DNA of 64,000 nt from an uncultured Candidatus Binatia bacterium (GTDB lineage Bacteria > Desulfobacterota > Binatia > UBA9968 > JAJDTQ01): assembly GCA_964291295.2 (NCBI GenBank), contig OZ219754.1:1024001-1088000 (forward strand), in the 5' to 3' direction. The position numbers and the translations under genes are program-made. The notes beneath the pieces are model-generated. The model saw only the letters and a list, made by a program, of their open reading frames with translations. It was not told where the DNA came from and ran no database searches. Shown in pieces: positions 1,733-23,706 of this stretch. Each line of letters begins with the position of its first letter. The first letter of the stretch is position 1.

Positions 1733-1767
1733 AGAGGGAGGAGGCCCCGCGCTTCCTCCCTCTTTTT
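1733..1767 (+). terminator. intrinsic terminator-like hairpin upstream of plsY
   Basis: AGAGGGAGGA-N11-TCCTCCCTCT followed by TTTT. Confidence 0.6.
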
Positions 1768-1842
1768 GTCCGGGCAAGGGAGGTGTGCCCGACCGGAAGC
1801 CCCCGGCCACAGCCTGCCGGTCCTGTTCAACACCATGACACC

Positions 1843-2448: not shown

Positions 2449-2550
2449 CAGGACCGGCGGTCCGGCGGATCTGCCTGGGTCGCCCTTGCCCCTCGCCGGA
2501 CGCGAGCCTGCCCCCTGCCCCCGTTCCGTGGACAGGTGCACGCTTTCCGC

Positions 2551-3351: not shown

Positions 3352-3713
3352 GGCAGTGCCGCCTGGTCCCGCGCGCCTGGCCACGCCCTTGTCCCCTTCA
3401 GTGTCCCCCGTCCTGGTCTTGCACCACGTCGAATGGATGTCGCTCCGCCCCGGCTCCCGGTCACCGTGTCGCCGCGCGGCGCCCGACCGTGACCGCCCGG
3501 CGTCCGGTCGCTTTGCAGCCATCGGCGTCAGCCCCGGTGGGCCGACCGCTACGCTACACCCCAACCATGCGGTGTGCAATGATGATGTCGGACGTGCGTG
3601 CGCCGTTGCGGGACGGGTCGCCGCTGCGGGAGCGTGCGGTCACTGCCCGGTGGCGCGGAATTCTGTTGACATCCCCGCCGTTTCCTGTTGGCATACGATG
3701 CTGCGGTGATGCC

Positions 3714-4286
3714 ATGTCGAAGGTGCTTTCAAGAGATCGACTGCAAGGGTTCTTCCTCGACATGACGCAGCGCTGTTTCGACGAATTGGGGATCCGCGAT
3801 GCCGCGGTGACGGACTATGTGGCGGACGTGCTGGCGGAGTTTGCCCGCAGCGACCGGCTGTATCGCATGCGGTCCCGCAGGAACCAGAGGCTCGACAGCG
3901 TGGTCGAGATGCTGGTGGCGGACGACGCGACGGTTTCGCGTGAGAACCCACTCATGCAGGAACGGCGAATGCGGAAGCATCTCGGAGACTATACCTTGTT
4001 CATGAGCGGAATCTTCCGTTCCTACGTCGAGCGGGGCGGTTTCCTGGACTACTACCTGCGGGAGGGAAGCCGGTCCTACTGGAAGGTTTCCGAAGTGGAC
4101 CTGGCCCTCTACCGGACCGGTTTCCTGCTTTTCCAGGAGCTCTCGGAGAAGTTCGAATACCTGTCCGGCGCCCTCGACTACATGCACAAAGCCTACTTTG
4201 CGGCCTCGCCCAAAAGGGATGATCCATTCTCCGGTTTCCTGAAGCAGATCGAAGGTTGGATGAAGGTGAACGTAACCGACAACTGA
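3714..4286 (+). CDS. hypothetical protein (190 aa)
   Basis: clean ORF with host-like codon usage, ends 2 nt before mltG. Confidence 0.7.
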   Translation: MSKVLSRDRLQGFFLDMTQRCFDELGIRDAAVTDYVADVLAEFARSDRLYRMRSRRNQRLDSVVEMLVADDATVSRENPLMQERRMRKHLGDYTLFMSGIFRSYVERGGFLDYYLREGSRSYWKVSEVDLALYRTGFLLFQELSEKFEYLSGALDYMHKAYFAASPKRDDPFSGFLKQIEGWMKVNVTDN

Positions 4287-7796: not shown

Positions 7797-9839
7797 ATGA
7801 ACCGCCTGGTCAACGAGACGAGCCCCTACCTGTTGCAGCACGCCGGCAACCCGGTGGACTGGTACCCTTGGGGCGAAGAGGCCTTTGCCAAGGCACGGTC
7901 CGAGGACAAGCCGATCCTCCTGAGCATCGGCTATTCCGCCTGCCACTGGTGCCACGTGATGGAGCACGAGTCGTTCCAGAACGAGGCCATCGCCGCATTG
8001 ATGAACGAGAACTTCGTCAGCATCAAGGTGGACCGGGAGGAACGGCCCGACCTGGACGAGGTCTACATGAACGCCGTGCAGATGCTCACCAAGCGCGGCG
8101 GCTGGCCCATGACGGTGTTTCTGACGCCGGAGTGCAAGCCCTTTTTCGGCGGCACCTACTACCCGCCCGAGGACCGGCACGGCATGCCCGGCTTTCCGAG
8201 GGTGCTGCAGGCGGTGGTGGAGGCTTACCGCAACAAGCCCGAGGATGTGGCCCGGAGCGTGGATCGGATCGTGGCGGCGCTGGACCGCATGAGCGTACTC
8301 GGCGAGACGACCGACGAACTGAGCGTGGACATCGTCACCCGCGGGGCGGAGGGCCTGGCGCCAGCCTACGACACCGCCAACGGCGGCTTCGGCCGGGCGC
8401 CCAAGTTCCCCAACGCCGGCGTGTTCAATCTGTTCCTGCGCGCCCACCGGCTGTCGGGTAACCGACGCTATCTCGAAATGATCACCGAGACGCTCCGGAA
8501 GATGGCCGAGGGCGGCGTGTACGACCAGCTCGGCGGCGGCTTCCACCGCTATTCCGTGGACGACAAGTGGCTGGTGCCCCACTTCGAGAAGATGCTTTAC
8601 GACAACGGCCAGCTCGCGCAGGTCTATGCCGAGGCGTACCGCATCACCGGGGACGGATTTTTCAGGCGCATCGCCGTGGAGACCGTGGAATACGTGCTGC
8701 GGGAAATGTGCCAGCCGGAAGGCGGATTCTACTCCGCCCAGGACGCGGACAGCGAGGGAGAGGAGGGCAGGTTCTTCGTATGGAGCCGTGAGGAGGTCGT
8801 CGAACTCCTAGGCAAAGAGCACGGCGACGTCTTCTGCCGGGTCTACGACGTCTCGGACCTCGGCAATTTCGAGGGCAGGAATATCCTGCACCCCATCCTG
8901 ACCGTGGAGCAGGCCGCCCGGTACTTCAACAAGGACGCGCAAGAGGTCGAGACTGTCCTGGCCGAGTCCCGCGCACGGCTCTTTGCCGAGCGGGAGAAGC
9001 GGATCAAGCCCTTTCGCGACGAGAAAGTCATCGTCTCCTGGAACGGCCTGATGCTGTCGGGGGTGGCCGCGGCCTACGCCATCACCGGCGACGCGCGCAT
9101 CCGGGAGGCAGCCGGCCGGACCGTGGACTTCGTCTTCAACCGCATGTTCGAGAACGGTCTGTTGCTGCACACCTGCAAGGATGGGCAGGCCAAGCTGCCG
9201 GGCTACCTGGACGACTATGCTTTCCTCATCGCCGGTCTGCTGGACCTGTTCGAGGCGACCTTCGACGCGGACCTGTTGGAACGGTCCCGGAGCCTCGCCC
9301 GGATCATGGTGGCGGAATTCCGGGACCAGGAGAACGGTGGGTTCTTCTACACGGGCAAGTCCCACGAGCAGCTCATCAGCCGCACCAAGCCCGGGTTCGA
9401 CAGCTCCATCCCGTCGGGCAATTCGGTGGCGGTGCAGGTGCTCCTGCGGCTCCACCACTACACCGGAGAGCGCGACCTGCTCGAATACGCGGAGAAGACG
9501 CTGCGCCTCCACTTCGACGCCATGACCCGGGAGCCCTTCGGACTCGCCAACATGCTCGGGGCGCTGGACTTGCATCTCTCGAAGCCGGTGGAAATCGTCA
9601 TGGTGGCGGGCAGGGACGACCCGGATGCGCGCGGAATCATGCAGCGGGTGCAGGACAGCTACCTGCCCAACAAGACGCTCCAATGGGTCGATCCGGACGC
9701 CAGGCTCGAGGAAGTCTCGCCGCTGTTGGCGGGGAAATCGCAGCTCGACGGCAAACCGACGGTCTTCGTATGCCGAAACTTCACCTGTGCCCCGCCGGTG
9801 ACAAGCTGGGAAGCCCTGCGGCCACTGCTGGAGCCGTAG
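7797..9839 (+). CDS. thioredoxin domain-containing protein (YyaL/DUF255 family)
   Basis: [57 protein letters not shown]. Confidence 0.93.
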
Positions 9840-9889
9840 GGTCCGGGGGACTCGACACGGAACCGGGCCGTTGAGCGGGTGGGTGCCGC

Positions 9890-9926
9890 GATTCAGCAAA
9901 AGCTCCAGGATTCGGCAAAGCTCCAG
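9890..9926. repeat. imperfect 18-19 bp tandem duplication at the left edge of the R-M cassette
   Basis: GATTCAGCAAAAGCTCCAG / GATTCGGCAAAGCTCCAG. Confidence 0.75.
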
Positions 9927-10891
9927 TGATGGCGGTCAACAGGGACAAACCGGACCGGTGGAAACGGGATATCGTGCGGTCAGTGGACATGTACAATGAC
10001 TGGCTCGTGCGATTTGCGCCAAAGGCATACCGGACAACGCGAGTGCGGACCACGAAGGACGTCGAGGCGACACTTGAATCGACCCGGAACCTGACGAATA
10101 TGGGGGTGGAACTGCTGAGGACGAATCCCTCGGTGTTGCCGACATTGCGAATGTCAACCTGTCCGCCCCTGGCTGCGGACCGGCTGATCGGGCTCACGGG
10201 CGTCCCGGGGAATCTGGTCAAGGTAATGGAGAAGCACAACCGGCTTCCTTTGCGGATGGCCGGACGTGAGATCGACAAGGACCTTGAGAAGATCGCGAGG
10301 ACCATCGAAAAGATGGCTGATCCGGATGTCTTTGTCTGGCTGAAGCGCGGGGATGATTCATCCGAACAGGAACTATATCGGGCTGCGACGATTGTGGCGG
10401 ATCGACTGTGCGGTGTCGTTGCCAACCCGATCATCCGCAATGCACAGGAGAAGCGTCAACTGACCGCGATTGGCAACTGGTTGACGGCTCTCGGATACGA
10501 AAACCTGCCGCCGGGCGAAGGCACGAAATACGGCCAGATGCAGCCGGGGACGTATTCGTATCGGCTCAACGTCCCGGTAGAACAGGATGGGACCGCAAAG
10601 AGGGTCAATATTCCTGTGGATGCAGTGGTGATGCCCAAAGCGCCGAAGGCAGGCGAACTGCCGTTGCTGATTGAAGCAAAGTCGGCGGGAGATGTCACAA
10701 ATGTCAACAAACGACGCAAGGAAGAAGCCGCGAAGATGAGCCTGCTGCGACGTACTTATGGTGACGCGGTACGTTACATCCTGTTCCTGTGCGGATACTT
10801 TGACAGTGGCTATCTCGGTTACGAGGCTGCGGAGGGTATCGATTGGGTGTGGGAGCACCGTGTCAACGATCTGGGCGAGTTCGGGTTGTAG
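9926..10891 (+). CDS. type II restriction endonuclease, XamI-like family
   Basis: NPIIRNAQEKRQL and IEAKSAGDVTNVNKRRKEEA motifs; adjacent methyltransferase. Confidence 0.8.
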   Translation: MMAVNRDKPDRWKRDIVRSVDMYNDWLVRFAPKAYRTTRVRTTKDVEATLESTRNLTNMGVELLRTNPSVLPTLRMSTCPPLAADRLIGLTGVPGNLVKVMEKHNRLPLRMAGREIDKDLEKIARTIEKMADPDVFVWLKRGDDSSEQELYRAATIVADRLCGVVANPIIRNAQEKRQLTAIGNWLTALGYENLPPGEGTKYGQMQPGTYSYRLNVPVEQDGTAKRVNIPVDAVVMPKAPKAGELPLLIEAKSAGDVTNVNKRRKEEAAKMSLLRRTYGDAVRYILFLCGYFDSGYLGYEAAEGIDWVWEHRVNDLGEFGL

Positions 10892-12484
10892 ATGATGGAG
10901 AAAGCCGTTGCAGAATTGGAGGCGCGGCGACTGGCCCTGCAGGATCTGCTTGACGGGCAACGGGACTCCTCTGTTCGAAACCGAATGGGGCAATTTGCGA
11001 CACCGACCGGGCTGGCCGTCGATATTCTGCGCTATGCGAGAAAGCACTTTCAAAGGGGCGAGAAAGTGTGGTTCATGGATCCGGCCATGGGAACGGGATC
11101 GTTCTATTCGGCTTTGCTGGCTGTTTTTCCGCGAACTCACATCGGTACGGCCGTGGGATACGAGATCGACCCGCATTATGGAAGGCCGACAGAGAGACTG
11201 TGGGGCAAGACGGGACTGGACATGCACCTTGAGGATTTCACGCGGGCGGAGGCCCCGGTTCCCGCTGAAAGGTTCAATCTGCTGATCTGCAATCCGCCCT
11301 ATGTGCGGCATCACCACATTGCCAATGACGAGAAGCAAAGATTGAAGACGCGCACGCGGAGCGCCTGCGGGGTGTCGATCAGCGGGCTGGCCGGCCTCTA
11401 TTGCCACTTTTTGGGTATCAGTCATGCGTGGATGGCCGACAATGGGCTGGCAGGGTGGTTGATTCCGAGCGAGTTCATGGATGTGAACTACGGTGTCTCT
11501 GTGAAGCATTATCTGCTCGACAAGGTAACGCTTTTGCATATTCATCGCTTCGATCCGAAGGATGTGCAGTTCGGCGACGCGCTTGTGTCGTCGGCCGTTG
11601 TGTGGTTTCGAAACAAGCCCCCTCCTTTGGGTGGAAACGTAAGATTCACTTATGGCGGAACACTGGAACGACCGTCGCTGGAGCGGTTCGTTTCGGTGGA
11701 GGCTTTGCGTCACGATACAAAGTGGACGCGCTATCCGGCAAAAAAATCTCATGAAGCGGCAGACGGACCGGTCCTGGGCGATTTCTTCAGGATCAAGCGG
11801 GGCCTTGCTACCGGCAACAACAGATACTTTATCCTGTCGGAACGGGAAATCGAGTGCCGTGGATTGCCCATTGAGGCATTCAAGCCAATTCTGCCGAGTC
11901 CACGATACGTTCCGGACGACGAGATCATGTGTGATCGTGGTGGCAATCCGGTTCTGGAACGGCGATTGTTTCTGCTCGACCCGCCTTGGGCGGCAGACGA
12001 GATCAGGGAGCAATATCCGAGTCTGTGGGCCTATCTGGAACAGGGCAAGGCGGAGGGCATCGCGGATCGCTATGTCTGCCGCCATCGGGCGACCTGGTAC
12101 ACACAGGAATGCCGCCCGCCCGCACCGTTTGTCTGTACGTATCTCGGGAGGAGCGACAAGAAGAGTGGCAGCCCCTTTCGCTTTATTCTGAACAATTCCA
12201 AGGCAACGGCGGCAAACGTGTATTTGATGCTGTACCCAAGGGAACCATTCGAACGCGCCCTGCGGGGCAGGCCCGAGCTTAAACGGCGAGTGTGGGAGTA
12301 CCTTAACCGGATTTGCCCCAAGGCCATGCTTGGTGAAGGCCGGGTCTACGGGGGCGGGTTGCACAAACTGGAACCGAAGGAACTTGGCAACGTCCCGGCG
12401 GAAGCATTGGCCGGGCTGTTTCCCACACGGGTGCGGCAACGACCGGAGAGGCAGGGCGAGTTGTTCGAAGGATCGATCGCATAG
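10892..12484 (+). CDS. N6-adenine DNA methyltransferase (gamma class), cognate of the XamI-like endonuclease
   Basis: GQFATP, DPAMGTGSF (motif I), ICNPPYVRH (motif IV), GRVYGGGLHKLEPKEL. Confidence 0.88.
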   Translation: MMEKAVAELEARRLALQDLLDGQRDSSVRNRMGQFATPTGLAVDILRYARKHFQRGEKVWFMDPAMGTGSFYSALLAVFPRTHIGTAVGYEIDPHYGRPTERLWGKTGLDMHLEDFTRAEAPVPAERFNLLICNPPYVRHHHIANDEKQRLKTRTRSACGVSISGLAGLYCHFLGISHAWMADNGLAGWLIPSEFMDVNYGVSVKHYLLDKVTLLHIHRFDPKDVQFGDALVSSAVVWFRNKPPPLGGNVRFTYGGTLERPSLERFVSVEALRHDTKWTRYPAKKSHEAADGPVLGDFFRIKRGLATGNNRYFILSEREIECRGLPIEAFKPILPSPRYVPDDEIMCDRGGNPVLERRLFLLDPPWAADEIREQYPSLWAYLEQGKAEGIADRYVCRHRATWYTQECRPPAPFVCTYLGRSDKKSGSPFRFILNNSKATAANVYLMLYPREPFERALRGRPELKRRVWEYLNRICPKAMLGEGRVYGGGLHKLEPKELGNVPAEALAGLFPTRVRQRPERQGELFEGSIA

Positions 12485-12489
12485 GCCGT

Positions 12490-12517
12490 GATGGGCGATT
12501 CCAGATGGGCGATTCCA
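12490..12517. repeat. perfect 14-bp tandem duplication at the right edge of the R-M cassette
   Basis: GATGGGCGATTCCA x2. Confidence 0.85.
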
Positions 12518-12660
12518 CCTTGTGCAGCGAGGGCTTTGTGTGACCCTCTGTCGCCTGACAGACGACTTCGTGTTTGGCGTCGTATGCAACGGAAGGCATC
12601 GCAGGGTTGCCGGGGCTGTCATCGACAGGTGGACGTATTCACATGAACAAAGCTTGATGC

Positions 12661-13173
12661 ATGCCAATACCAGGGTCCCGTGAAGAACTCCTTGATGCCA
12701 TCGAGACCAACTTTGAGCGTCTTGACAAGGAGCTGCGGACAGTGCCTGCGGCAAGAAGCAACGAAGCGACCCTTGAGGGACATGCCAAGGGTACGGTCAT
12801 GAGTGTCCACGATCTGGCGAGCTATCTCCTGGGTTGGAACAGGCTGGTGCTGAAGTGGATTGAAAAGGATGCGGGGGGCGAGCCGGTGGATTTTCCTGAA
12901 ACCGGTTTCAGATGGAACCAGTTCGGCGAGCTTGCGCAAAAGTTCTACGATGATTTCGACGCCGTTCCCTTTGATCGGCTTCTGGATGATCTCGAAGTCA
13001 CAAAACGGGACATCGTCACGTTCATCTCCGGTCAGACCAACCAATGGCTGTACGGTGAACCATGGTACAGGGAATACACCATGGGCCGAATGATCCAACT
13101 CAATACCTCCTCGCCGTACGCGAACGCCCGCAAGCGGCTGCGGCAATGGAAACGGCAGCACGACATCGTGTGA
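12661..13173 (+). CDS. ClbS/DfsB family (DUF1706) four-helix-bundle protein
   Basis: 170 aa; LEGHAKGT, SYLLGW (Tyr55), FPETGFRWN, LAQKFY, GRMIQLNTSSPY resemble E. coli ClbS as recalled. Confidence 0.85.
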   Translation: MPIPGSREELLDAIETNFERLDKELRTVPAARSNEATLEGHAKGTVMSVHDLASYLLGWNRLVLKWIEKDAGGEPVDFPETGFRWNQFGELAQKFYDDFDAVPFDRLLDDLEVTKRDIVTFISGQTNQWLYGEPWYREYTMGRMIQLNTSSPYANARKRLRQWKRQHDIV

Positions 13174-13224
13174 TGGAGGCCGCAGGCGACGGACTGGGAT
13201 CGACAGGCCGCACCACATGACGAT

Positions 13225-14548
13225 TCAGCCCGGCGGCAGCTCCTTGGTGTGAGCGAGACAGGCGGTTGGCTCGGTCGGAAGTTGTCCGGGGGGCTGCTGC
13301 AGACCGGATTCCAGAGTCAGGTGCCCCAGGACGGGCAGAAACCGCTCCTGCATCCAACTGCGCATCTGCTCCCAATCGGACCGCTGCACGGGGTGAAAGC
13401 CGTGGGCGAGGATCGAGTTGTTGCGTCTGAAAAGGAGGTCGCGGAGTTTTTCGCCGTGACCGGTGATCAGTTCCCGTGCCGGTCCTTGGAGTTTCCCTCC
13501 CACGACCTGCCATGCAAACCACAGGCCGAGCTTGATCTTGCCGTCATGGTCCGGGGACGGGGCGACGCTCGCGGGCAACAGCTCACGGGGAAAGTTGGCG
13601 GTGTCGGCATCAGGTCCGAGTCTGGTGAGAAGCTGCCACTGAGCGGTCCATTCGAGCAAGCGATACACGCGGGCGGTCGCGTCATCGAAACGGCCTTGGC
13701 TGGCGCGCCGCTCGGCATTCCGCCAGAGGTCCCACAGGCGGGCCGCTTCACGCCGCTTGTCGCTTTCTTGTGTCAGGTATCTCAAGGCCGGCAACATCGT
13801 CGGCCAGCAGGGCTTAATCCGACTGCCGTAGTCCTTGAGTAAATCGAATGCGCCGGCATGGTCGAAGTCGTCCCAGCGAGCCAGCCCTCGGCTGAGCGCA
13901 CGGGCGAGTCCGAGGCGCTCCCTTCCGGGGGTGTCTGCGGTAATCTGGATAGAGTCCAGCCCTTCCTTCCGCGGCTTCGTGGTATGCGCACCGGCGCCAA
14001 GCGGCGAGATAGGGCCTCATCGCACGCTCCAGGCGCAGGCGAGCCACGCTCGCGGTCATTACCTGCTCTGTTCCGCTCCGCACCCGGACGAGGTCGGCGC
14101 GTGCGCCGGCCACCAGCTGGAGTTCCATGTCGTCCCGCTCCAGGGCTGTGCAGACGAGCGCCGCCGTCATCGTCTTCGTGCCGCCGGAATAGTCGGCGAC
14201 CAGCTGCGCGCCGGGGAACCGCTGGGCCAATTCGTCGGCTGCGCGGCGCATGGCGTCGTACGCTCCGTCGAGATTGTCGGCCGGGACGATGTGGTGCTCG
14301 AAACCGTGGTCGTCGAGACCCGCTTGGGTCGGGATATTCGGCAAGGTGGGGTTCTCGTCGTTGTAGCCGGCCTTGATGACCTTGCCTGTGCCGGTTATCT
14401 GTGTGATGGATCCGGACTTCCCGGTCTCCGGGTCCCGGTTCGTGCAAAAGAAACAGACATGGCGAGGTGCGGCAGTTTTGATCGCCCTGAGGATCGGCTG
14501 ATGCGAGCCGCCTACGGTGCAAAGTAGAACAGGCTTGTCTGTCGTCAT
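13225..14548 (-). pseudogene. CRISPR-associated CARF-HEPN effector (TIGR02710 family), frameshifted by a 4-bp duplication
   Basis: N-terminal CARF (LLCTVGGSHQP; ADYSGGTKTM); removing one GGAA at ~13961-13970 joins the frames (AEGLDS..WDDFDH..NAERRA..RNNSILAHGF) into a 439-aa ORF. Confidence 0.85.
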
Positions 14549-14908
14549 CTACGACTCCTCGTTTGATGCACGTTGAATCATGCGCTCGATCGCGGTCGCG
14601 AGTTCGGGCAAGTCACGTTCAACGACGTTCCAGACGACCTCGGCATCGATCTCCCGATAAGTGTGGGTCAAAACGTTGTGAAATCCCGCTGGCTCGTCCC
14701 ACGGAATATCCGGTTCGGTGGCCTTGAGCGGTGCCCCGAGTCGTTGTATGGACTCCGCAAGGGTCTGGAGGTTGCGCACTACGGCATCCTGTACCAAGTG
14801 CGAACGTTCGAACGTTTCCCACCGATTGTCGGTGTATTCCCGAATACGCTGGACGTACAGCCGGATATGATCCAGCAATATGAGGTCCGACTCGCGATGG
14901 GCCTTCAC
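14549..14908 (-). CDS. HEPN/DUF86 toxin (HepT-like) with altered RX4HXY motif
   Basis: QDAVVRNLQTLAES, PDIPW, FHNVLTHTY; overlaps the MNT stop. Confidence 0.85.
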   Translation of the reverse strand: MKAHRESDLILLDHIRLYVQRIREYTDNRWETFERSHLVQDAVVRNLQTLAESIQRLGAPLKATEPDIPWDEPAGFHNVLTHTYREIDAEVVWNVVERDLPELATAIERMIQRASNEES

Positions 14909-15189
14909 AACGGCTCCGCTTCCCGCAGGATGCGTTCGCGGAGTGCCGGATGCAGAGCGCGTTCTGTCACGACGTCCACTTGGCGCTGCAGGAGTTTCCG
15001 AACATCCATCAGGAGTCCGCCCAGCGCCAGCCCTGTCCTGTCCGGCGGCAGCATCACCAACAGGTCCACATCGCTCGTCTCGTCCGCATCACCCCGGGCC
15101 ATGGAGCCGAACACGCGAACGTTGCGAACGCCGCGTCGCTCAGCCAGTGCGAGAATTTCGGCGCGATGGGCTTCAATGAGCGGGTGCAT
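14905..15189 (-). CDS. minimal nucleotidyltransferase (MNT) antitoxin
   Basis: VRVFGSMARGD..SDVDLLV, VDVVTE..LHP..RERIL. Confidence 0.9.
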   Translation of the reverse strand: MHPLIEAHRAEILALAERRGVRNVRVFGSMARGDADETSDVDLLVMLPPDRTGLALGGLLMDVRKLLQRQVDVVTERALHPALRERILREAEPL

Positions 15190-15330
15190 TCTCAGACCGA
15201 CTCTTTCATCGTGAGTTGCATGACCCACTTCGCTTGCTCGCCTGCGGCGTCATCGTTGCGGCCATGATCCGTCTCGGCATGCGGCACCTTTTTCATGAAC
15301 GAAGGTGCCATTCACGTCGTTTCCCGCGGA

Positions 15331-15474
15331 TCAGGAGACCCGCCAGTTGCGTTCCCATTTCTTTTCGCCCTCGGGAGAGCCCATCATCCGAAAGATCCGT
15401 TTGACCAGATCGGCAGTCTGCAACTGCGGGGCTTCGGGCCTGCCTTCATGCCCCCCGGTTTCACGGAGTTTCAT
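15331..15474 (-). CDS. putative 47-aa small protein overlapping the cmr6 end
   Basis: MKLRETGGHEGRPEAPQLQTADLVKRIFRMMGSPEGEKKWERNWRVS; no recognised family. Confidence 0.3.
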   Translation of the reverse strand: MKLRETGGHEGRPEAPQLQTADLVKRIFRMMGSPEGEKKWERNWRVS

Positions 15475-16528
15475 CCCTTGCTGCCGACCAGGAGTCGTAG
15501 ATGGCCTTGGCTTCGCGCGCTGATCGGCCTAGTGGAATGTCTTCCGACCATCCTTTCTCCTGCCAGCGCCACTGAATGTCGGAGAAGGCCGCACCCTTGA
15601 GTTCGGGGTCTTCGATCGTCTCCCATTCTTTTGCCAGCGCCCTGCCGCGCAGGATGTCATCCTCCGGGGCGTTGTGTGCGTCCTTCAGTCTGGCAATGGT
15701 CGTATCCACCCATACACAGCGCTGTACGGGCGGGGAAACGGGTTGCGCCGAGAAACGCCCGTAGCCGGCTCGGGTTCTGGCTCCGCCGCCGCGTGTGCTC
15801 AGGGCGGAGATCAGTATCTCTTCCGTCAGTGCGAGCCAGTCGGCCGATCCCTCCATCACGAACCGAAATGCGCCGTGCGCCGCGATCTGGGCATTCGGAA
15901 CCGGGCTGTCGCAGTCGGTAGCCGGTTTGGCACCATCCTGACTGTAGTAGTCGGGATGGTGTGTGGTGACGACCTCCGGCACCAGAGGGAAATCCGCCGA
16001 ATCGGGGACCCACCAGGCATCATGGAAAGCAACCAGCCCTGACAGCCCGGACGGCCGCTTCTCGGTGGCGGGAGCGCCGAACAGTTCGCCGCAGACCGCC
16101 GGACCTTTGTCCGTGTCGAATCGTTCGCGCGCATGCGCATGAACGACGCCCTTGACGCTTGAGCCGGGGATATACGGCATCCCGTGGCTGTGGCTGATGA
16201 CGCAGCCGGTCTCAAGCATGCCGCCGCCCGTGAGTCCGATGAACAAGCGGGTTTCGATTGCCAGATGCACGGAGCGAAAACGCGCCGGATCCGTGGTCGC
16301 TCGCCTCCAGCGTGCGTAGGCCCGCCGATAAAAGTCACCCGCGATGCTCCGGCATACCTGGGCAACGTGTCTCGACTTGCTGTCGGCGTCTCCCCCGGAC
16401 TCGACAAGACCTCGTTGGAGCAGCAGCCCCGGATGGGGCTCGCCGACGAGGGAGTCTTTCTCAAGAGAGTCTTTCGCGATCTTGTCGTAAAGGGGACGCA
16501 AAGCGTCGCGCATCAGCGGCACCGTCAT
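15461..16528 (-). CDS. cmr6: type III-B CRISPR RAMP protein Cmr6
   Basis: LETG..HSHGMPYIPGSSVKG, FHDAWWVP, EVVTTHHPDYY, GARTRAGYG. Confidence 0.92.
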   Translation of the reverse strand: MTVPLMRDALRPLYDKIAKDSLEKDSLVGEPHPGLLLQRGLVESGGDADSKSRHVAQVCRSIAGDFYRRAYARWRRATTDPARFRSVHLAIETRLFIGLTGGGMLETGCVISHSHGMPYIPGSSVKGVVHAHARERFDTDKGPAVCGELFGAPATEKRPSGLSGLVAFHDAWWVPDSADFPLVPEVVTTHHPDYYSQDGAKPATDCDSPVPNAQIAAHGAFRFVMEGSADWLALTEEILISALSTRGGGARTRAGYGRFSAQPVSPPVQRCVWVDTTIARLKDAHNAPEDDILRGRALAKEWETIEDPELKGAAFSDIQWRWQEKGWSEDIPLGRSAREAKAIYDSWSAARDETP

Positions 16529-16926
16529 GATGCCTCCTCCCCGCTGTCGTCTCCGGTCGCGTTTACGCGGAGCACGCCCTGCACGTAGCGCTTCAGCCAG
16601 CCGCTCGCTTCCAGGGAACGGCGGGTAAGATGCAGGGTCCGGCGGAGGTCGCTTTCGACGATCATCTCGTGAAGACCTTGACCATCGCCGGCGGTCGTGG
16701 CCCCAGTGGCCCGCAATACCGCGTTCAGATCGTCGAGCAGGGCGCGATGGGCGCCCGTCCCCTTCGCGAGCAGAAAGCCGGTGGCGTGCGCCAGGCCATT
16801 CTCAAGGATCATGCCTGGCAGTCCGTGCGCCAGAGCTCCATATTGCTTCTTTTCCAGGCAATCGCGGCGTGCGGCGATGCACTCGTAAGCCTTTCGGGCG
16901 ATGGCATGGGTGCGGAGCCGGATCAT
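16525..16926 (-). CDS. cmr5: type III-B small subunit Cmr5
   Basis: YGALAHGLPGMILENGLAHA..WLKRY; position between cmr4 and cmr6. Confidence 0.88.
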   Translation of the reverse strand: MIRLRTHAIARKAYECIAARRDCLEKKQYGALAHGLPGMILENGLAHATGFLLAKGTGAHRALLDDLNAVLRATGATTAGDGQGLHEMIVESDLRRTLHLTRRSLEASGWLKRYVQGVLRVNATGDDSGEEAS

Positions 16927-17810
16927 GCCGAAGCCTCCGCGGTGAGGAAGCGAACCAGCCCACGGCCGACGCCGGTCTTGCCGCCGAGCTGCAGCAGCGT
17001 ACCGGAGCCCGGCATTGAAAGCGCGAGCTCATCCGTCGAGCGCATATCGTCACCGTTCCCGGATGCGGAAAGCGCGAACAGTCCCCAGAGGACAGTTTCG
17101 GCGGGGAGATTCTCTTCATACCAGAGCGCACCCTTGTGGACGGTGCCGGTTTCGGGGTCAAGGGCAATACGGGATCGTATCTCGGTGGCGGTCTCGGCAA
17201 GAAAGCTCATGATCTCATCGGGGAGCAGCGCAACGCGGCAAGCCACGTCGTTCCGGTCTTCCACATCGTCAGTGTCGGGATACAGGGCCTTCACGATGAG
17301 CGTTGCCCATTCTTGCAGGAGTGCTCCGTCGTCGCGGGTCCGCAGGTCGAGATCCTCGAGCACGAGCTTCCCGTCGGCACGGTTGACGGACTCTGCCGGC
17401 ACCAGCGCCTCATCCGCGGATGGCTCGGGCGGTATTTGGGGTGCAGAGATGCCCGCGTGTTTCAGGTCGCGCGCGTAACGACGCAGGATGAATGGCGCGG
17501 TCACGTAGCTCACGATGCCGGCCAGGCAGCGCACCGGCAGAAGCAAGAGGTGTGCGTCCCCGATAGCCAGAGATCCGGCGAAGGTGTCCTGATCACCGCT
17601 GATGGACTCGGGGCCGAACAAGGTTCGGGCGGCGGCCGCGTCGCTGTCGGTCACCTGCTGGCGCAGGACGCCGCGCAGCGACGAGCCGGGTACGATGGGA
17701 AGCTTGGTCGCCCGGGCTCGGGCGATGGGCAGATCCACCACGCCGGCAGACTGCCCGGTTCCGCAATGCAGCGCGGAGAGGGCGTGAAGATGAAAGAGCT
17801 TCGGGTGCAT
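16923..17810 (-). CDS. cmr4: type III-B RNA-cleaving backbone Cmr4
   Basis: LHCGTGQSAGVVDLPIAR (catalytic Asp retained), PGSSLRG, GALWYEENLPAET, QLGGKTGVGRG. Confidence 0.95.
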   Translation of the reverse strand: MHPKLFHLHALSALHCGTGQSAGVVDLPIARARATKLPIVPGSSLRGVLRQQVTDSDAAAARTLFGPESISGDQDTFAGSLAIGDAHLLLLPVRCLAGIVSYVTAPFILRRYARDLKHAGISAPQIPPEPSADEALVPAESVNRADGKLVLEDLDLRTRDDGALLQEWATLIVKALYPDTDDVEDRNDVACRVALLPDEIMSFLAETATEIRSRIALDPETGTVHKGALWYEENLPAETVLWGLFALSASGNGDDMRSTDELALSMPGSGTLLQLGGKTGVGRGLVRFLTAEASA

Positions 17811-17846
17811 GGTGCCGTCCTTCCGAAAGTCGGGCCGTGCAATGCG

Positions 17847-19115
17847 TCAGGACGGCGACGTCCATGCGCTTGGCAGGATGAGTCCGAAGCCGTCGCGCCG
17901 GTCCTGTTCAAGGTCGCTGATGCTGGCCAGCCAGAGCGCATCAAGCAGGCCGGGATCGTTTGGATCGATTTCGTCCAGGATGCGAAACCAGTACGTGGTG
18001 CCGGCCCCGGCAAGCTTGCGGGTGGCGCGAGGGCGGCGCCTTGCAAGGTCCCAGCCCGAATGCGGCTGCCAGCGGTCTACCGCGGCCGCCCGCAGTTGCA
18101 GCCGCAGCCGGGGCGCGGCGGGCGGGCTTCCGGTCAGAGTCTCGCTGTCGAGCCAGTCCGGGCGGTATCCGGCCGAAAAGATCCCCGGCGTCAGCAGCGT
18201 CAGACAGAGACCGCCGGCGGTGGCGATCTCCTTCAGCCAGCCCGGAGGCGGTGCGGGCCAGAGCCGTTCGGCCTCCGGCTGCAATGCGGCCAGACGGCGC
18301 TTGCCGCCGAGGTGCACCAGCGTTTCGCCCAGTGCCTCGCCGCAGCGTACCAGGAGCCTCAGCCCGCCTGCAGACGGCCCGGCAGCCTGATCCGGCGCAT
18401 CAAGGTCCAGGCCCTCGGTCTGGAACAGCCCTCCCGTGTGCGCGGCATCCTTGTCCGGTTTGACGGTGACGTGAGTCCGACGATCACCCGGCGGCGGCAC
18501 CCAGCCGTGTTGGTACGGCATCTCTTCTCCCCGGCGGAATGCCAGAAGGTCGCACCATTCCCACCAGGTCGGGCCGGGCACGGGCTTGCTGGCAACGGGT
18601 TCGGTCAATCGCACCGGCAGCAGGCCGCCAGGCAGATCGGCACCGGCTCCGGGGTCGAACGGACGCGGCTCGGTCCGCGTGCAACGCTTCTTGTCGCCAG
18701 CACCGAAGTAGAGAGCGTCGGCGGGCTTCGGTGCCAGCACCTGGTTGGAACGAGTCAGGAGCAACGGCCCCGCCACCGTCAGTTCCGCGAGTTCCGGTCC
18801 GAAGGGCCTGCCCGTTGATCGCGCCCAGGCGGTCCGCAAACATCCGGCCGTGGTCGACGGAGGCGGGAAGCGCGCCGGGTCGGCATCGAAACGGCCCTCC
18901 ATGGGGCGAGCGGAGCGCACGATGATGGGCGCAAGCGGATCCAGGCTCACGACCGTGCTGGAGACGCATGGTTCATCGGGACGGACGGGTGCCGCGCCGC
19001 GCTCCTCGGCCTGTGGTGTCTGGCTGGCGTTCGCTTGTTGCGGCGCGCGCCCTGCCTGGGCCTGCTCGCGGTGTTTCGATCGCGAACGCTTTCTCTTTCT
19101 TCCCCGGGGGCTCAT
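17847..19115 (-). CDS. cmr3: type III-B Cmr3 with basic N-terminal extension
   Basis: FPPPSTTAG, LGGKRRLA, LLTPGIF, SGWDLA, AGTTYWF, DGFG; ATGA overlap with cmr2. Confidence 0.88.
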   Translation of the reverse strand: MSPRGRKRKRSRSKHREQAQAGRAPQQANASQTPQAEERGAAPVRPDEPCVSSTVVSLDPLAPIIVRSARPMEGRFDADPARFPPPSTTAGCLRTAWARSTGRPFGPELAELTVAGPLLLTRSNQVLAPKPADALYFGAGDKKRCTRTEPRPFDPGAGADLPGGLLPVRLTEPVASKPVPGPTWWEWCDLLAFRRGEEMPYQHGWVPPPGDRRTHVTVKPDKDAAHTGGLFQTEGLDLDAPDQAAGPSAGGLRLLVRCGEALGETLVHLGGKRRLAALQPEAERLWPAPPPGWLKEIATAGGLCLTLLTPGIFSAGYRPDWLDSETLTGSPPAAPRLRLQLRAAAVDRWQPHSGWDLARRRPRATRKLAGAGTTYWFRILDEIDPNDPGLLDALWLASISDLEQDRRDGFGLILPSAWTSPS

Positions 19116-20953
19116 GTACGTTCTCCCGTCTCCCCGGCCGAGCGCGCCGAAAGCCAGCGCGCGATGATCAACGTATCCGCCAGTTCGTTCAGCGGCTGAA
19201 CCGCGGTCCGTTTCTGGATGAGGCACCGCAGATCGGCGGGAATGCGCTTGCTGCCGCCCTCGCCGCGCGCCCGGTCGAGCAGGCGGTCCACCTCCGCGGC
19301 CCGCATGCCCCGGACAGTTTCGTCTTCGCGCAGCTCGGCAAGGCGCAGGCCAATGGCGCGCAGGTCATAGGCAACGCGGGACGGCAGCAGGCCGTCTCGA
19401 AAGGCGTCGGTCAGCCGGTTGAGTGCCTCGAACGCCGCGTCATCAATCCACTGTGCTCGCCACTGGATCTCCGCCCCGGACCGGATGCCGAGCACTATGG
19501 CGAGTGCATTGCGCGGAGTGCACGTGGAGTCTCCCTTCGCCGCATTCTCGGCCCGTTCGGCGCGTGCCCGGAGCGCCCCCAAGGGCTCCATTACATGACC
19601 GATGCCGAGGCCCACCGACAGGCTGGGCCGCTCGTCGCGTCCAATTTCCAGATCGGCGGCGATTCCCGCGAGGGAATCCGCGAACACATCCGCCAAGGTG
19701 CGGGAGCAGGCTGTGGCATGGGCGAGCGGGACCAGTGCCAGGACATCGTCGCCGCCCGCATAGACCGCGTGGCCACGATACTCGCGTACGATCCCGCGCA
19801 CCTTGGATGCGAAACCATGCAGCGCGCGGGAGATCTTCCGGGACTGCTCTGCGTTCCGGGCCTTCGCCAGAAAGGCACCCATGCGGTCGCCGTCAGCCTT
19901 CAGGACGGCGGCGTAGGGGACAGGGGCACCCGCCGGAAGTCCGTCCGTGGTCGCCTCGCGGGAGATTCGATTGATGCACTGTTGCAGCTTTTGAAGTGCC
20001 TCACGTTCCTTTTCGTCCGGTTCGCAGGCCAATGCGTTGCTCAGGCGGAACGCGTAGAGCATCTGTGCATCGAAAGGGAGCGTCCGATAGATCCCGTCGT
20101 TGCCTTCGACTCGCGTCGCAAGGTCCAGGCCGACCAGCGCTTCGCAGGCGCTGTGCAAGCGCTGTTGCTGATCGGCTGTGAGCCGCTCGATCCAGGAGTC
20201 TGCGGCAATGCGCGGCCATGCGGTGAACTGCTCCGGATCACCAGCCAGGCGTTTGATGACGCCAAGCGCATCAAGTTGCTCGCCGTCCGTCAGTCCGAGC
20301 TTGCGCTGCGCGCGGTCACCGGCCGGCCAGTCCCGCCGGTCCGGCAAGACGGTCTCGAATGCTCCGTCGAGAGACGATTTCGGCAGGCCGGAGGTCGATA
20401 GCGGCTTGCACGCCCGGAAGTCGCGGGTCGCCTTGCGCGCGGCCAGCACATCGCCGAGTTGTTGGCTGACTTGTGCATATCCGTCCGCATCCGACCCGGA
20501 GTCGCACTGCACCCAGGCCGCGAAGCCTTCGAGGATGTCGTCGATCTGAGCCTGCCAGACGTCGCTCCGCAACGGCCTTCCCATCCGTTCGAGTTCGCCT
20601 CTTGCGGATTCCCCGATCTCCGTCAAGCGCTTCGCGGCCGCGGACTTCGCTTCGTCGCAGAGCTTGCGGGCGGCCGCGGCATCCGGCAAGTCGACCTCCG
20701 CGCGCAGGATATTGGCGATGTTGGCGGCGTCTCCCGGATGGTTCTGTGGTTTCAGGTCTTCCGCCGGATCTTTTGGGCACGGAAAGACGAGACAGCCGGG
20801 CTGCTGTTCATGCATCCATCGGGCGGCGGCCCGCGCCGCTTCCGACAGGAGCCAGGAGCCGCCCCAGAGGTCGCGGGTGCGGCGCGCGGCACCGATGAGG
20901 CTTTGCACCGGCCCCAGAGACAGGGTGACGAGGAACCGCGCCATCGGTGTCAT
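19112..20953 (-). CDS. cas10: Cas10/Cmr2 (HD-less, GGDD palm intact)
   Basis: LSLGPVQSLIGAARRTRDLWGGSWLLS, YAAVLKADGDRMG, VYAGGDDVLAL; 613 aa with no N-terminal HD domain. Confidence 0.95.
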   Translation of the reverse strand: MTPMARFLVTLSLGPVQSLIGAARRTRDLWGGSWLLSEAARAAARWMHEQQPGCLVFPCPKDPAEDLKPQNHPGDAANIANILRAEVDLPDAAAARKLCDEAKSAAAKRLTEIGESARGELERMGRPLRSDVWQAQIDDILEGFAAWVQCDSGSDADGYAQVSQQLGDVLAARKATRDFRACKPLSTSGLPKSSLDGAFETVLPDRRDWPAGDRAQRKLGLTDGEQLDALGVIKRLAGDPEQFTAWPRIAADSWIERLTADQQQRLHSACEALVGLDLATRVEGNDGIYRTLPFDAQMLYAFRLSNALACEPDEKEREALQKLQQCINRISREATTDGLPAGAPVPYAAVLKADGDRMGAFLAKARNAEQSRKISRALHGFASKVRGIVREYRGHAVYAGGDDVLALVPLAHATACSRTLADVFADSLAGIAADLEIGRDERPSLSVGLGIGHVMEPLGALRARAERAENAAKGDSTCTPRNALAIVLGIRSGAEIQWRAQWIDDAAFEALNRLTDAFRDGLLPSRVAYDLRAIGLRLAELREDETVRGMRAAEVDRLLDRARGEGGSKRIPADLRCLIQKRTAVQPLNELADTLIIARWLSARSAGETGERT

Positions 20954-22146
20954 CCGTGCTCGAAGTAGTGCATGAATGCGGACAGTGGATCGACGCCGTG
21001 ACTCTGCATCGGTTTGATCTTTTGCGCCAATTCCTTTCGCTGAGCACTATCCGATGGCCATGCAGACCCCACCGATCCGGCCGCGCCCGATCCAAAACCG
21101 ACGCGGACACTCAAGCGGTCCTCCCAGCCGGGCAGCAGCAGCGCGAGGGGATGATACTGTTCGCCGTCGAACCACGGCCGCAGGATCAGCGGGCTCGCCA
21201 TGCGGTCATGCCCGTCGGGAGCGAGCTCGCAGTCGTGTGGATCCCCGCGCCCACGATCCTTGAAGTGAAAGACGACCGGCAGTCCGAACGCGGCGCGGGG
21301 GTAAAAGCCCTCCACCGGGTGTTGCGGTTCATGCCCTTGGGCGTTATGACGGGTTCGGCGTCGGATGGCATCCGGCTCCGGCCAGCGGCTGCGGCCGGGG
21401 CGATTCCCCGCGCCAGGATTCCGCCCGATCCCCGGACCCTGCCGGAATCGTTTCAGCCTGTCGACGGCTTTGTTCCATGCCTTGACCGCGTCTTTGCCGG
21501 GCTGACGGTGAAGAACCATCCAGCCGCCCTGCTCCTGGACTTCCTCAAGGGATACGGGCTTCAGTTTGGCCTCGTTACCGGCCACCCTGATGGCGCCCAG
21601 TCCGCGCCGGGTTCGCGCACCTACGCCGCCGAAGCTCGCCCACCAGCGAAGAGCATTGACGACCTGAGCGTGTTGCTGCTCCGTCACCGTCCGGGCGAAG
21701 TGCAGCACCAGATCGAATTTGTAACCATCCTTCAGAAGATCGGGATTGTCATTCTGTTCAAGAATCAGCGCATAGTCGGCAATCTCGGACTTTTTGACAA
21801 AGCGTTGGCCGTCGGCGGGAGTGGCCTTGACCTCCAACGTTACTCGACTGGCCCGCGGCCCCTGGCTCGATATGCCGCCCCACAGTTCCAACTCTTTGTT
21901 GAAGAGTTCCCGAGAGGTCCGCCCCGCTCCGTTGAGCAGACGCCACCAGAAACGCAAATGGCCACGAAGAGCACCGGGCCGGATGGGGAGTTCGCGGTCA
22001 ATCTCGCCGGGCTTGACACCGCCTCCATACATGGGAGTGATCAGTTCGCACCGGGCAGTCACCGGATCGGGTCCGGCCGGAGGCCGCTTCGCCTCCCAGG
22101 CTTTCCGGGCCGCATCGGGGCAGAGTGTCGGATTCGGTCGTCTCAT
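20950..22146 (-). CDS. cmr1: type III-B RAMP Cmr1
   Basis: LITPMYGGG, LRGHLRFWWR, FGGVGARTRRGLG, PRAAFGLP, RMASPLIL. Confidence 0.93.
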   Translation of the reverse strand: MRRPNPTLCPDAARKAWEAKRPPAGPDPVTARCELITPMYGGGVKPGEIDRELPIRPGALRGHLRFWWRLLNGAGRTSRELFNKELELWGGISSQGPRASRVTLEVKATPADGQRFVKKSEIADYALILEQNDNPDLLKDGYKFDLVLHFARTVTEQQHAQVVNALRWWASFGGVGARTRRGLGAIRVAGNEAKLKPVSLEEVQEQGGWMVLHRQPGKDAVKAWNKAVDRLKRFRQGPGIGRNPGAGNRPGRSRWPEPDAIRRRTRHNAQGHEPQHPVEGFYPRAAFGLPVVFHFKDRGRGDPHDCELAPDGHDRMASPLILRPWFDGEQYHPLALLLPGWEDRLSVRVGFGSGAAGSVGSAWPSDSAQRKELAQKIKPMQSHGVDPLSAFMHYFEHG

Positions 22147-22441
22147 GCAGGAGATGCTCCGAGACCCCGGCGTCACCACTGCCGAAGCCGAGCATCTGGC
22201 AGCGGAACGCCAAGAGGCGTCAATAATGCCATGGGAACCCTATGCCGGACAAGGCGAAATTCGCTTTTGATCAGAAACATGTCTGCGCGAGGGTGCCTGC
22301 GCGAGGGGAGATGTCGGAAGTGCCGTAGCCGGATAGTCGATGCCTCGCACGGTTGACCCTGAGCATGGTATGGCTTCGCCGCCATCGCGGATGCGTTGGG
22401 CGGCGCGCGGGCTGCCGGGGGGCCGGAGTCTGCTGGGATGT

Positions 22442-23500
22442 TCAGGGGCGCTGTTTGGCCGCGGCGCGGGCGAGGTTTTCGAACAGGGGAAGGGTGGCTT
22501 GCCAGTCGATGCAGGCGTCGGTGACGCTCTGGCCATAGGTGAGCGGGATGTCGGGCTTGATGTCCTGGCGGCCTGCCACGAGGTGGCTTTCCATCATGAC
22601 GCCGCAGATGTTGTCGGATCCGGAGCCGACCTGTGTGCAGATGTCGGCGCAGACCTCGGGTTGACGCCGGTAGTCCTTCTGGCTGTTGCCGTGGCTGCAG
22701 TCCACGAGCACGCGGTGCGGCAAATCGGCGCCGCGCAGGGTCCGGGAGGCCTGGTCGATCACGGCGCGGTCGTAGTTGGGGCCGAGGTTGGAGCCGCGCA
22801 GGATGACATGGCAACTCGCGTTACCGGAGGTGGAGATCACCGCGGCGATTCCCTGATGGGTGACCCCCAGGAAATGATGCGGGTGCGCGGCGGCACGCAC
22901 GCCGTCGATGGCGACCTGGATGGAGCCGCCGGTGCTGTTCTTGAAGCCGACGGGCATGGACAGCCCGGACGCCAGTTCCCGGTGCACCTGGCTTTCGGCC
23001 GTGCGCGCCCCGATGGCGCCCCATGAAACCAGGTCGGCGGTGAATTGCGGGGTGATGGTATCAAGGAACTCGCACCCCGCGGGCATGCCCATGTTCGCCA
23101 AGTCCAGCAGCAATCCCCGGGCGAGCCGAAGTCCCTTGTTGATGTTGAACTTTCCGTCGAGGTCCGGGTCGTTGATGAGGCCTTTCCATCCCACCGTCGT
23201 GCGCGGTTTCTCGAAGTAGACGCGCATGATGACGAGCAGATCGTCCGCCAGGCGTTCGGCTTCGTGCTTCAGGCGGCCGGCATACTCCAGGGCCGCGTCC
23301 GAGTCATGGATGGAACATGGGCCGGAGACCACCAGAAGCCGATGGTCGCGGCCGTCAAGGATCGCTTCGATCTCCTTGCGAGCCCGGGTGACCGTGGCCG
23401 TTGCCTGCGCCGTGATCGGCAACTCCTCGTTTACCAGGATCACCGGCGGCAACAGCGGGCGCAGGTTTTCGATTCTCAGGTCGTCGGTGGTCTGGTTCAT
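22442..23500 (-). CDS. aroG: 3-deoxy-7-phosphoheptulonate (DAHP) synthase, class I alpha
   Basis: GPCSIHD, RVYFEKPRTTVGWKG, IGART, VGFKN, VDCSHGNS, SVTDAC. Confidence 0.92.
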   Translation of the reverse strand: MNQTTDDLRIENLRPLLPPVILVNEELPITAQATATVTRARKEIEAILDGRDHRLLVVSGPCSIHDSDAALEYAGRLKHEAERLADDLLVIMRVYFEKPRTTVGWKGLINDPDLDGKFNINKGLRLARGLLLDLANMGMPAGCEFLDTITPQFTADLVSWGAIGARTAESQVHRELASGLSMPVGFKNSTGGSIQVAIDGVRAAAHPHHFLGVTHQGIAAVISTSGNASCHVILRGSNLGPNYDRAVIDQASRTLRGADLPHRVLVDCSHGNSQKDYRRQPEVCADICTQVGSGSDNICGVMMESHLVAGRQDIKPDIPLTYGQSVTDACIDWQATLPLFENLARAAAKQRP

Positions 23501-23533
23501 GGCATCCCTATCCAAGTCGGTTATTTAACACAG

Positions 23534-23542
23534 TTTTCCACA
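23534..23542 (+). promoter_or_regulatory. single DnaA-box match in the aroG-mnmE divergent intergenic region
   Basis: TTTTCCACA fits TTWTNCACA; TATAAT at 23614-23619 nearby. Confidence 0.3.
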
Positions 23543-23706
23543 GGAGGCGAGTACGCGGCGGCGAGACCTTTCGGAGTGGGGCCGGTCCGGACGCAAGGCG
23601 ATGTCGGATAGGTTATAATGGCCGTCCAAGACTCCTGCGGTCGAACGCGGTCGGGTCGGATGCGTGCGAATCGGAATGCGTGCGAATCGTAGTTTCGGAA
23701 AGTCTC

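Follow-up and report, generated by a model that had tools for sequence, protein, structure and literature searches.

An array-less type III-B Cmr operon followed by an MNT-HepT pair and a frameshifted CARF-HEPN gene in an uncultured Candidatus Binatia bacterium

Gene Content of the Locus

The locus described here is a type III-B CRISPR operon of an uncultured Candidatus Binatia bacterium. It lies in a 64,000-nucleotide stretch of contig OZ219754.1 (assembly GCA_964291295.2, positions 1,024,001 to 1,088,000), which is referred to as the window and in which its genes are numbered. Six cmr genes are followed by a minimal nucleotidyltransferase (MNT) gene, a HepT-like gene and a gene of the TIGR02710 (Csm6) family, which codes for a CARF-HEPN ribonuclease (RNase) and is frameshifted. 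All of these genes are located on the minus strand, and their identities were assigned through NCBIfam and Pfam profile searches.

The first gene is cmr1 (20950-22179), a RAMP gene matched by TIGR01894 (4.4e-12) and PF03787, with 55-60% identity to the cmr1 genes of the related loci L019 and L021. This is followed by cas10/cmr2 (19112-20953), encoding a 613-amino acid protein that scores 142 bits against TIGR02577 (cut-off 79.4). Its Cmr2_N domain spans residues 8-113 and its second palm domain (palm2, the Cas10 family PF22335) residues 347-476. The start of cmr3 (17847-19115; 422 amino acids; PF09700, 6.4e-50) is placed at the ATG at 19115, which overlaps the cas10 stop and yields a basic N-terminus matching the orthologues. 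The remaining genes are cmr4 (16923-17810; TIGR02580, 206.7 bits), which encodes the RNA-cleaving backbone subunit, cmr5 (16525-16926; PF09701, 2.2e-26, and TIGR01881), which encodes the small subunit, and the RAMP gene cmr6 (15461-16528; TIGR01898, 73.6 bits). Five of the six pass their NCBIfam cut-offs, the exception being Cmr3 (58.8 bits against 100.4). All six are full length in comparison with their orthologues and retain their catalytic residues, and the cmr1-cas10-cmr3-4-5-6 order is common to 20 or more related loci.

The junctions are tight. Overlaps of four nucleotides were read from the sequence at cmr1/cas10, cas10/cmr3, cmr4/cmr5, cmr5/cmr6 and MNT/HepT, and the HepT and CARF-HEPN genes abut. 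Gaps are found between cmr3 and cmr4 (36 nucleotides) and between cmr6 and the MNT gene (271 nucleotides). A preliminary description of the window had proposed a co-oriented series running from cmr1 to the CARF-HEPN gene, mostly with overlapping or abutting stop and start codons, and this layout is borne out. The small open reading frame (ORF) that it had counted as a further member, between cmr6 and MNT, is not. The spacer (15190-15460, minus strand) contains small ORFs of 21-47 amino acids that are not conserved, and the 47-amino acid example (sORF47, 15331-15474) has no counterpart, matching only itself across 45 related loci. The small ORFs of this gap are not counted as a predicted gene. 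A scan of 13000-15600 for promoters and terminators returned no sites.

The Cas10 and Cmr4 Subunits

In Cas10, Cmr2_N starts as early as residue 8. The 908-amino acid Cas10 of locus L094 has this domain only from residue 217 onwards, and the HD region is accordingly absent from the window protein. Consistent with this, no HD family in Pfam matches the protein at E values up to 0.01. The GGDD motif is kept, the sequence reading VYAGGDDVLALVP, and the nearest solved chain is the 612-amino acid 9arw_A. As this HD-less Cas10 retains GGDD, its cyclase should be competent. Taken together with the adjoining CARF effector gene, the motif suggests that Cas10 would make cyclic oligoadenylate (cOA) upon binding of the target RNA.

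In Cmr4, Asp26 aligns with the aspartate of GVVDQPIQRER in the solved chains 4wnz_A and 4w8w_A. The aspartate of GVVDQP is the residue that we take to be catalytic, and the protein looks catalytically intact. Both the HD-less, GGDD-bearing Cas10 and the intact Cmr4 aspartate had been noted from the letters of the window, and both readings hold.

The Broken CARF-HEPN Effector

The TIGR02710 gene (13225-14548) is split between two frames, at 13814-14548 and 13225-13797. The N-terminal part covers positions 6-149 of the TIGR02710 profile and the C-terminal part, in the other frame, covers positions 239-376 and is also matched by PF09670. Frame 1 ends in ...HEAAEG and frame 2 picks up at EGLDSIQIT..., with its stop at 13225. 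When the two frames are combined, the product aligns end to end with intact orthologues of 424-439 amino acids, and its HEPN motif, RNNSILAH, is intact. The CARF and HEPN domains are therefore not joined in one polypeptide, and the gene is a pseudogene of a TIGR02710 member. Three-frame translation locates the frameshift at a tandem duplication of four nucleotides at 13961-13970 on the minus strand, in the run GGAAGGAAGG (GGAA GGAA GG).

Across this site, the window sequence is shared exactly by contigs from two public sequencing runs of the same organism label (X1 and X2), one of which may have supplied the assembly. A third run of that label (X3), 90-95% identical, is without the four letters at 13961. 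As X1 and X2 carry the duplication and X3 does not, the break is a real, lineage-specific event. The effector gene is in frame in this sister lineage. The earlier reading of the CARF gene as broken is confirmed.

The MNT-HepT Pair

The MNT gene (14905-15189) encodes a 94-amino acid MntA-like protein from the ATG at 15189. It passes the Pfam cut-off for PF01909 (4e-15, 56.4 bits) and falls below the 60-bit cut-off of NF047752 with 45.9 bits. A match to the solved chain 1wot_A was obtained at 8.6e-18. The nucleotidyltransferase motif GSMARGD...SDVDLLV is intact, GSMARGDADETSDVDL is present and the gene lies directly upstream of HepT. The HepT-like gene (14549-14908) encodes a HEPN protein of 119 amino acids that likewise passes its Pfam cut-off (PF01934, 2.8e-22) and scores 56.1 bits against NF047751, again under a cut-off of 60 bits. 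The two genes are the only minimal MNT and the only HepT-like gene of the genome.

The catalytic motif of HepT is altered. The window protein reads HNVLTH in place of RNxxxH, so that the R-x4-6-H feature of the family is absent from it. In an alignment to the solved Shewanella HepT (5yep/6m6u), a histidine occupies the position of the catalytic arginine of RNIAVH. The motif codon lies at positions 14678-14680 of the window. This RX4H motif is different in each of the three Cmr-linked copies: the window has HNVLTH, L019 has PNVLAH and L021 has RNVLTD. In L021 there are also frame changes in the HepT N-terminus, and the MNT stop is lost. Among the 120 closest HepT homologues (53-100% identical), 118 keep RN..xH, the exceptions being the window and L019 proteins; this count was made on protein sequences. 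The HepT genes located near TIGR02710 in L095 and L108 retain the motif.

The relatives of the MNT protein point to a mobile cassette. Among the 120 longer of 152 homologues, 15 carry a tyrosine-recombinase domain (PF00589), five carry a HepT domain and none is fused to CARF, Csm6 or PF09670. As 15 of these homologues carry an integrase domain and none of them a CARF domain, the MNT is better seen as a mobile cassette than as a Cmr-specific partner. The 15 integrase-bearing homologues (within P0127-P0155) are called as single proteins of 409-508 amino acids, 67-75% identical, and may reflect cassettes located next to integrases or fused gene calls. A HepT search of 400 genomes of the class of L021 gave a best other match of 45% identity, and in a plasmid collection only matches of 36-37% were found, on cyanobacterial plasmids.

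Occurrence of the Pair in Related Loci

Related loci were mapped through tblastn with the window proteins, together with Pfam and NCBIfam searches of the flanking ORFs. MNT and HepT genes were also detected with a nucleotidyltransferase-motif scan and a HepT profile. The clade set consists of 22 distinct loci with at least 1 kb of sequence after cmr6, comprising 20 loci (L034 having been dropped as a duplicate of L033) and two plasmids.

The exact order of the window (cmr6, MNT, HepT) is found in L021, where it is followed by an intact TIGR02710 gene. In L019, the operon has an MNT-HepT pair on its upstream side and a second, broken MNT after cmr6. The pair is thus present in two of the three closest full-length relatives, and for this reason it is not regarded as a random insertion in the window strain. 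It appears to be inherited within a small subclade. In L049, whose Cas10 is 55% identical to that of the window, an MNT and a HEPN gene of PF05168 lie between cmr6 and TIGR02710. Across the clade set, an MNT follows cmr6 in three of the 22 loci and is missing from the other 19. TIGR02710 is present in five of the 22, and in L028 and L033 it stands straight after cmr6 without an MNT.

The clade was searched outwards in two directions. In 401 genomes of the phylum of the window, TIGR02710 was found in 41, and MNT or HepT genes lay within 1.5 kb of it in two of 30 loci sampled. In 401 genomes of the class of L021, TIGR02710 was found in nine, and a HepT-like gene lay upstream of it in one of nine loci (L108) other than that of L021 itself. 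A solo MNT, with no HEPN gene, is situated between cmr6 and TIGR02710 in L078/L094, where Cas10 is only 21% identical. In L073/L095, an MNT-HepT pair lies beside cas2, convergent with cas6 and TIGR02710. Because the MNT of L095 escaped the motif scan, the counts of MNT and HepT genes outside the clade are minimum values. They suggest that an MNT near TIGR02710 is commoner than would be expected of a random gene, yet it is seen in a small minority of loci.

It is established that defence islands collect toxin-antitoxin pairs. According to a survey of type III accessory genes (PMC6546367), such pairs border type III modules and do not emerge among the accessory families. The preliminary description had proposed to look for a conserved order of cmr6, MNT, HEPN and TIGR02710 near the closest Cas10 homologues. 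That order is found in L021, and the pair recurs in L019, but the arrangement does not extend to the clade, where an MNT follows cmr6 in only three of the 22 loci. The further proposal that the pair is wired into the effector arm is not sustained, given that 19 of the 22 loci are without it, the HepT motif is mutated in all three Cmr-linked copies and no CARF or Csm6 fusion was seen among the homologues.

Other genes occupy the position after cmr6 elsewhere in the clade. L054 has a TIR-SAVED protein and a ThsB-like TIR protein (8510-10402 of that locus), and STIV B116-like proteins are found in L045 (15458-16174) and L048 (5903-6301). Radical SAM/SPASM proteins are located downstream of cmr6 in L025 (11823-13580), L118 (16571-17596) and L119 (10197-13776), and the clade loci with such proteins include both Allochromatium plasmids. 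In L094, a distant Cmr locus, cas6, an NE0113-like CARF-adenosine deaminase fusion and a NUDIX protein lie upstream of cmr1 (442-4211), and a YhcG-type PD-(D/E)xK nuclease follows TIGR02710. Past the broken second MNT of L019 (16330-18261) there are four similar ORFs (MPGERALLAAGVHGRP...), spaced by approximately 370-500 nucleotides and with no Pfam match.

Arrays and the Supply of crRNAs

The window contains no CRISPR-like repeat chain, no Rfam match and, in family searches, no cas1, cas2 or cas6, in agreement with what had first been reported for the 64 kb. A tRNA scan of the window found none. A search of the window for a solitary or degenerate repeat of the type I-G array described below gave no matches with up to three mismatches allowed, and no meaningful repeats were found in 12500-23600. 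As the Cmr module has no array of its own, it must use CRISPR RNAs (crRNAs) made elsewhere. The lack of an array thereby supports the earlier suggestion that crRNAs are taken in trans.

When the complete 3.70-Mb genome was scanned for repeat chains, two arrays were identified, both outside the window. Array A (C1:459092-460351) consists of 21 repeats of 28-29 nucleotides and adjoins cas3, cse1, cas7e, cas5e, cas6e and cas1e, which constitute a type I-E system. Array B (C1:3505877-3516530) is a type I-G array of 146 repeats of 35-36 nucleotides. It is flanked by cas4g/cas1g and cas2 and, past two insertion sequence (IS) transposase genes, by cas3g, cas8g1/csx17, csb1 and csb2, the last of which is a Cas5-Cas6 fusion. 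The transposase genes between array B and cas3g belong to the IS1634 and IS4 families (C1:3516640-3521020) and may affect expression. No stand-alone cas6 was found in the genome by family searches. The cas1 genes are confined to the two type I loci, and a PF09827 cas2 occurs only at the I-G locus. Distant arrays and crRNA-processing enzymes, which the preliminary description had proposed to look for, do therefore exist in this genome, but they belong to the I-E and I-G systems and there is no cognate type III array with a cas6.

The final bases are ATTGAAGT in the I-G repeat and ATGAACCG in the I-E repeat. The arrays attached to related Cmr loci have repeats of 36-37 nucleotides that end in ATTAAGAC, ATTGAAAC or ATTGAGAC. 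Because its repeat end resembles these, the 146-repeat I-G array is the likeliest source from which the complex would borrow its crRNAs. Such an arrangement is not new. In PMC5576922, array-less III-B modules using mature type I crRNAs are described, as are many III-B, C and D loci without cas1, cas2, cas6 and arrays.

A second array-less III-B locus is present in the genome at approximately C1:3224500-3233250, with cmr6, cmr5, a 682-amino acid Cas10 and cmr1. This Cas10 is 32% identical to that of the window, and a 610-amino acid TIGR02221-like DxTHG protein adjoins the locus.

Origin of the Locus

The nearest relatives of the window Cas10 are distant in taxonomy. The best match in 40 related genomes, 24 of them of the same genus, has an identity of 29-34%. 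Identities of 66-67% are reached in two Gammaproteobacteria metagenome-assembled genomes (MAGs) and one Latescibacterota MAG. Further relatives are carried by Allochromatium tepidum and A. vinosum plasmids (60-62%) and occur in 40 metagenome loci. At 10-16 kb of the window the G+C content drops to 57-62%, below the 66% of the genome. Adjoining the Cmr operon on the plus strand (9926-12484) are a gene for a XamI-type restriction endonuclease (PF09572, 1.6e-111) and then one for an Eco57I-like methylase. The operon and this restriction-modification pair form a mobile defence island of lower G+C content, and the Cmr module was probably acquired horizontally.

Proposed Function and Alternative Explanations

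The explanation that we consider probable, with appreciable doubt attached, is that of a mobile, array-less, signalling-capable Cmr core that borrows crRNAs and has captured a type VII-like cassette, which then decayed independently in different lines. A horizontally gained, interference-only III-B module would load crRNAs from another system of the same genome, and the transcripts of the 146-repeat I-G array, cut by Csb2, would supply them. Upon binding of a complementary transcript, Cmr4 would cleave it and Cas10 would make cOA. The receiver of this signal in cis would be the TIGR02710 CARF-HEPN RNase, which is dead here through the four-nucleotide duplication. The MNT-HepT cassette would have been captured in an ancestor of the window locus, L021 and L019 and have travelled with the module, with HepT inactivated independently in each line since then. 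As the toxin is decaying, the pair is better seen as baggage or as a former addiction module than as a working part of the signalling. At present, RNA-guided RNA cleavage may persist and cOA may be made without a cognate effector in cis, with the TIGR02221-like protein at the other III-B locus as a possible recipient of the signal. The initial proposal of a signalling-only module fed with crRNAs in trans is kept as regards the HD-less, GGDD-bearing Cas10 and the missing array, but not as regards the inclusion of MNT-HepT in the signalling.

Several observations weigh against this explanation. The borrowing of crRNAs is a step that we infer; the ATTGAAGT tag differs from the tags of the related arrays at 1-3 of 8 positions, Csb2 might remain bound to its own crRNAs, and two IS transposases interrupt the I-G locus between the array and cas3g. 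Two of the three mutated HepT copies come from MAGs, in which the accuracy of the consensus is uncertain. In the unrelated loci L049, L094 and L108, an MNT stands just upstream of TIGR02710, whether or not a HEPN gene accompanies it. Across the three Cmr-linked loci, identity among the MNT proteins is 74-81%, compared with 54-74% among the Cmr proteins and 62-63% among the HepT proteins. Such conservation, the highest in the locus, would not be expected of an antitoxin whose toxin is dead.

The last two points lead to a different role for the MNT. It may be a working part of the signalling that restrains or tunes the CARF-HEPN RNase, for example through nucleotidylation or by making or consuming the adenylate signal, with HepT as a dispensable component or an adaptor. 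An MNT is found between cmr6 and TIGR02710 in the window, L021, L049 and L094, and a HepT-like gene precedes TIGR02710 in L108. The MNT is the most conserved protein even as RX4H is lost from all three HepT copies, and this sole MNT and sole HepT of the genome are located at this very locus. Nonetheless, we regard such a role as unlikely, since the MNT is absent from 19 of the 22 clade loci and from 36 of the 39 TIGR02710 loci sampled outside the clade (where detections are lower bounds), and L028 and L033 manage with TIGR02710 straight after cmr6. The absence of CARF and PF09670 fusions among the 120 longer of the 152 homologues points the same way, as does the general enrichment of toxin-antitoxin pairs in defence islands. 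Furthermore, the TIGR02710 motif RN.SILAHGF is without a tyrosine where HepT has one, and this HepT tyrosine is presumably the site that MntA AMPylates. The stricter form of the proposal, in which the MNT would be a dedicated regulator of the TIGR02710 RNase or of its adenylate signal and not a HepT antitoxin at all, is quite unlikely. It would explain the recurrence between cmr6 and TIGR02710, the MNT genes without HepT and the high conservation of the MNT despite the loss of HepT.

The altered HepT motif can also be read the other way, as a HEPN active-site variant that is tolerated, in an addiction module that is still active and stabilizes the island. MNT and HepT overlap by four nucleotides in the canonical manner, and the MNT has intact motifs. 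The tyrosine after the motif histidine is kept (HTY in the window, HDY in L019), and L021 reads DGY, with the histidine lost. According to the HEPN survey PMC3710099, RNA cleavage may be retained by some HEPN versions whose motifs deviate. Each of the three orthologues, for its part, carries a change of its own (R to H, R to P and H to D), which is unlike a conserved alternative active site, the closest homologues keep R and H in 118 of 120 cases and the L021 HepT is also disrupted in frame at its N-terminus. An active module is thus very unlikely.

A more general decay of the locus is rather unlikely. According to this account, the whole locus is a dying remnant without a crRNA supply or an effector, and the intact cmr ORFs reflect a recent arrival. 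The locus is without several elements that are frequent in the related loci examined, namely cas6, the TIGR02221 protein, the NE0113 ring nuclease, cas1/cas2 and an array. The genes of both RNases of the accessory arm are damaged, and L019 has split cmr6 and cmr3 matches as well as its broken second MNT. Against this stand the six full-length cmr genes with their catalytic residues and the second lineage of the same label (90-95% identity), in which the stretch from MNT through HepT to TIGR02710 is kept with the effector in frame. In addition, it is known that type I crRNAs can serve array-less Cmr modules (PMC5576922).

Significance and Comparison with Known Systems

The locus represents one more mobile, array-less, HD-less Cmr module beside type I systems. 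The two lineages form a natural strain pair that differs by a four-nucleotide duplication in a Csm6-like effector. What does not fit neatly is the conservation of the MNT next to a HepT that is dead. Should the MNT target the CARF-HEPN RNase or the adenylate signal, it would represent a novel mode of type III signalling control. If it has no such role, the three independently inactivated HepT copies would provide a clean, small case of toxin decay in a defence island.

The closest parallel in crRNA supply is the III-B module of Marinomonas mediterranea, which uses I-F crRNAs (Silas et al. 2017, PMC5576922). As presented in that paper, it is likewise a horizontally acquired Cmr module beside type I systems and depends on crRNAs matured by another system, as is proposed here. 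The Marinomonas locus, as described there, has its own RT-Cas1 adaptation genes and an array, whereas the window locus has neither. The window locus also differs in its HD-less Cas10 and in its candidate donor, a type I-G array.

In gene content, the nearest counterparts are the loci on plasmids pALVIN01 of Allochromatium vinosum DSM 180 and pAt1 of A. tepidum. Their Cas10 proteins belong to the same HD-less clade, with 60-62% identity over the whole protein, and they share the cmr1-cas10-cmr3-4-5-6 order with the window. The plasmid loci differ in that cas6 (in pAt1) and another CRISPR-associated gene lie upstream and radical SAM genes downstream, and in having no MNT, HepT or TIGR02710.

The effector resembles the TIGR02710 Csm6-family RNases in its CARF N-terminus, its helical middle part, its HEPN domain with R-x6-H and its place after a type III operon. 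It differs from them in being frameshifted and in having no detectable sequence match to a solved chain; a TIGR02710 orthologue and the profile likewise gave no meaningful match when compared with solved structures. The family search was positive in Thermus thermophilus among 14 control genomes.

The pair itself is comparable to the type VII MntA/HepT system of Shewanella oneidensis (5yep/6m6u), with which it shares the order of MNT and then HepT, the overlap of stop and start codons, the GS...D.D motif and membership of PF01934. It differs in the exchange of the RX4H arginine for histidine, in scores for both proteins below the NCBIfam equivalog cut-offs and in being embedded in a Cmr operon. 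A further comparison is offered by CreTA, an RNA toxin-antitoxin pair that safeguards CRISPR effector genes and is controlled by the effector complex. Although the window pair consists of proteins and has a toxin that looks inactive, it has in common with CreTA the position of a toxin-antitoxin element inside a cas operon and the idea that such an element stabilizes the locus.

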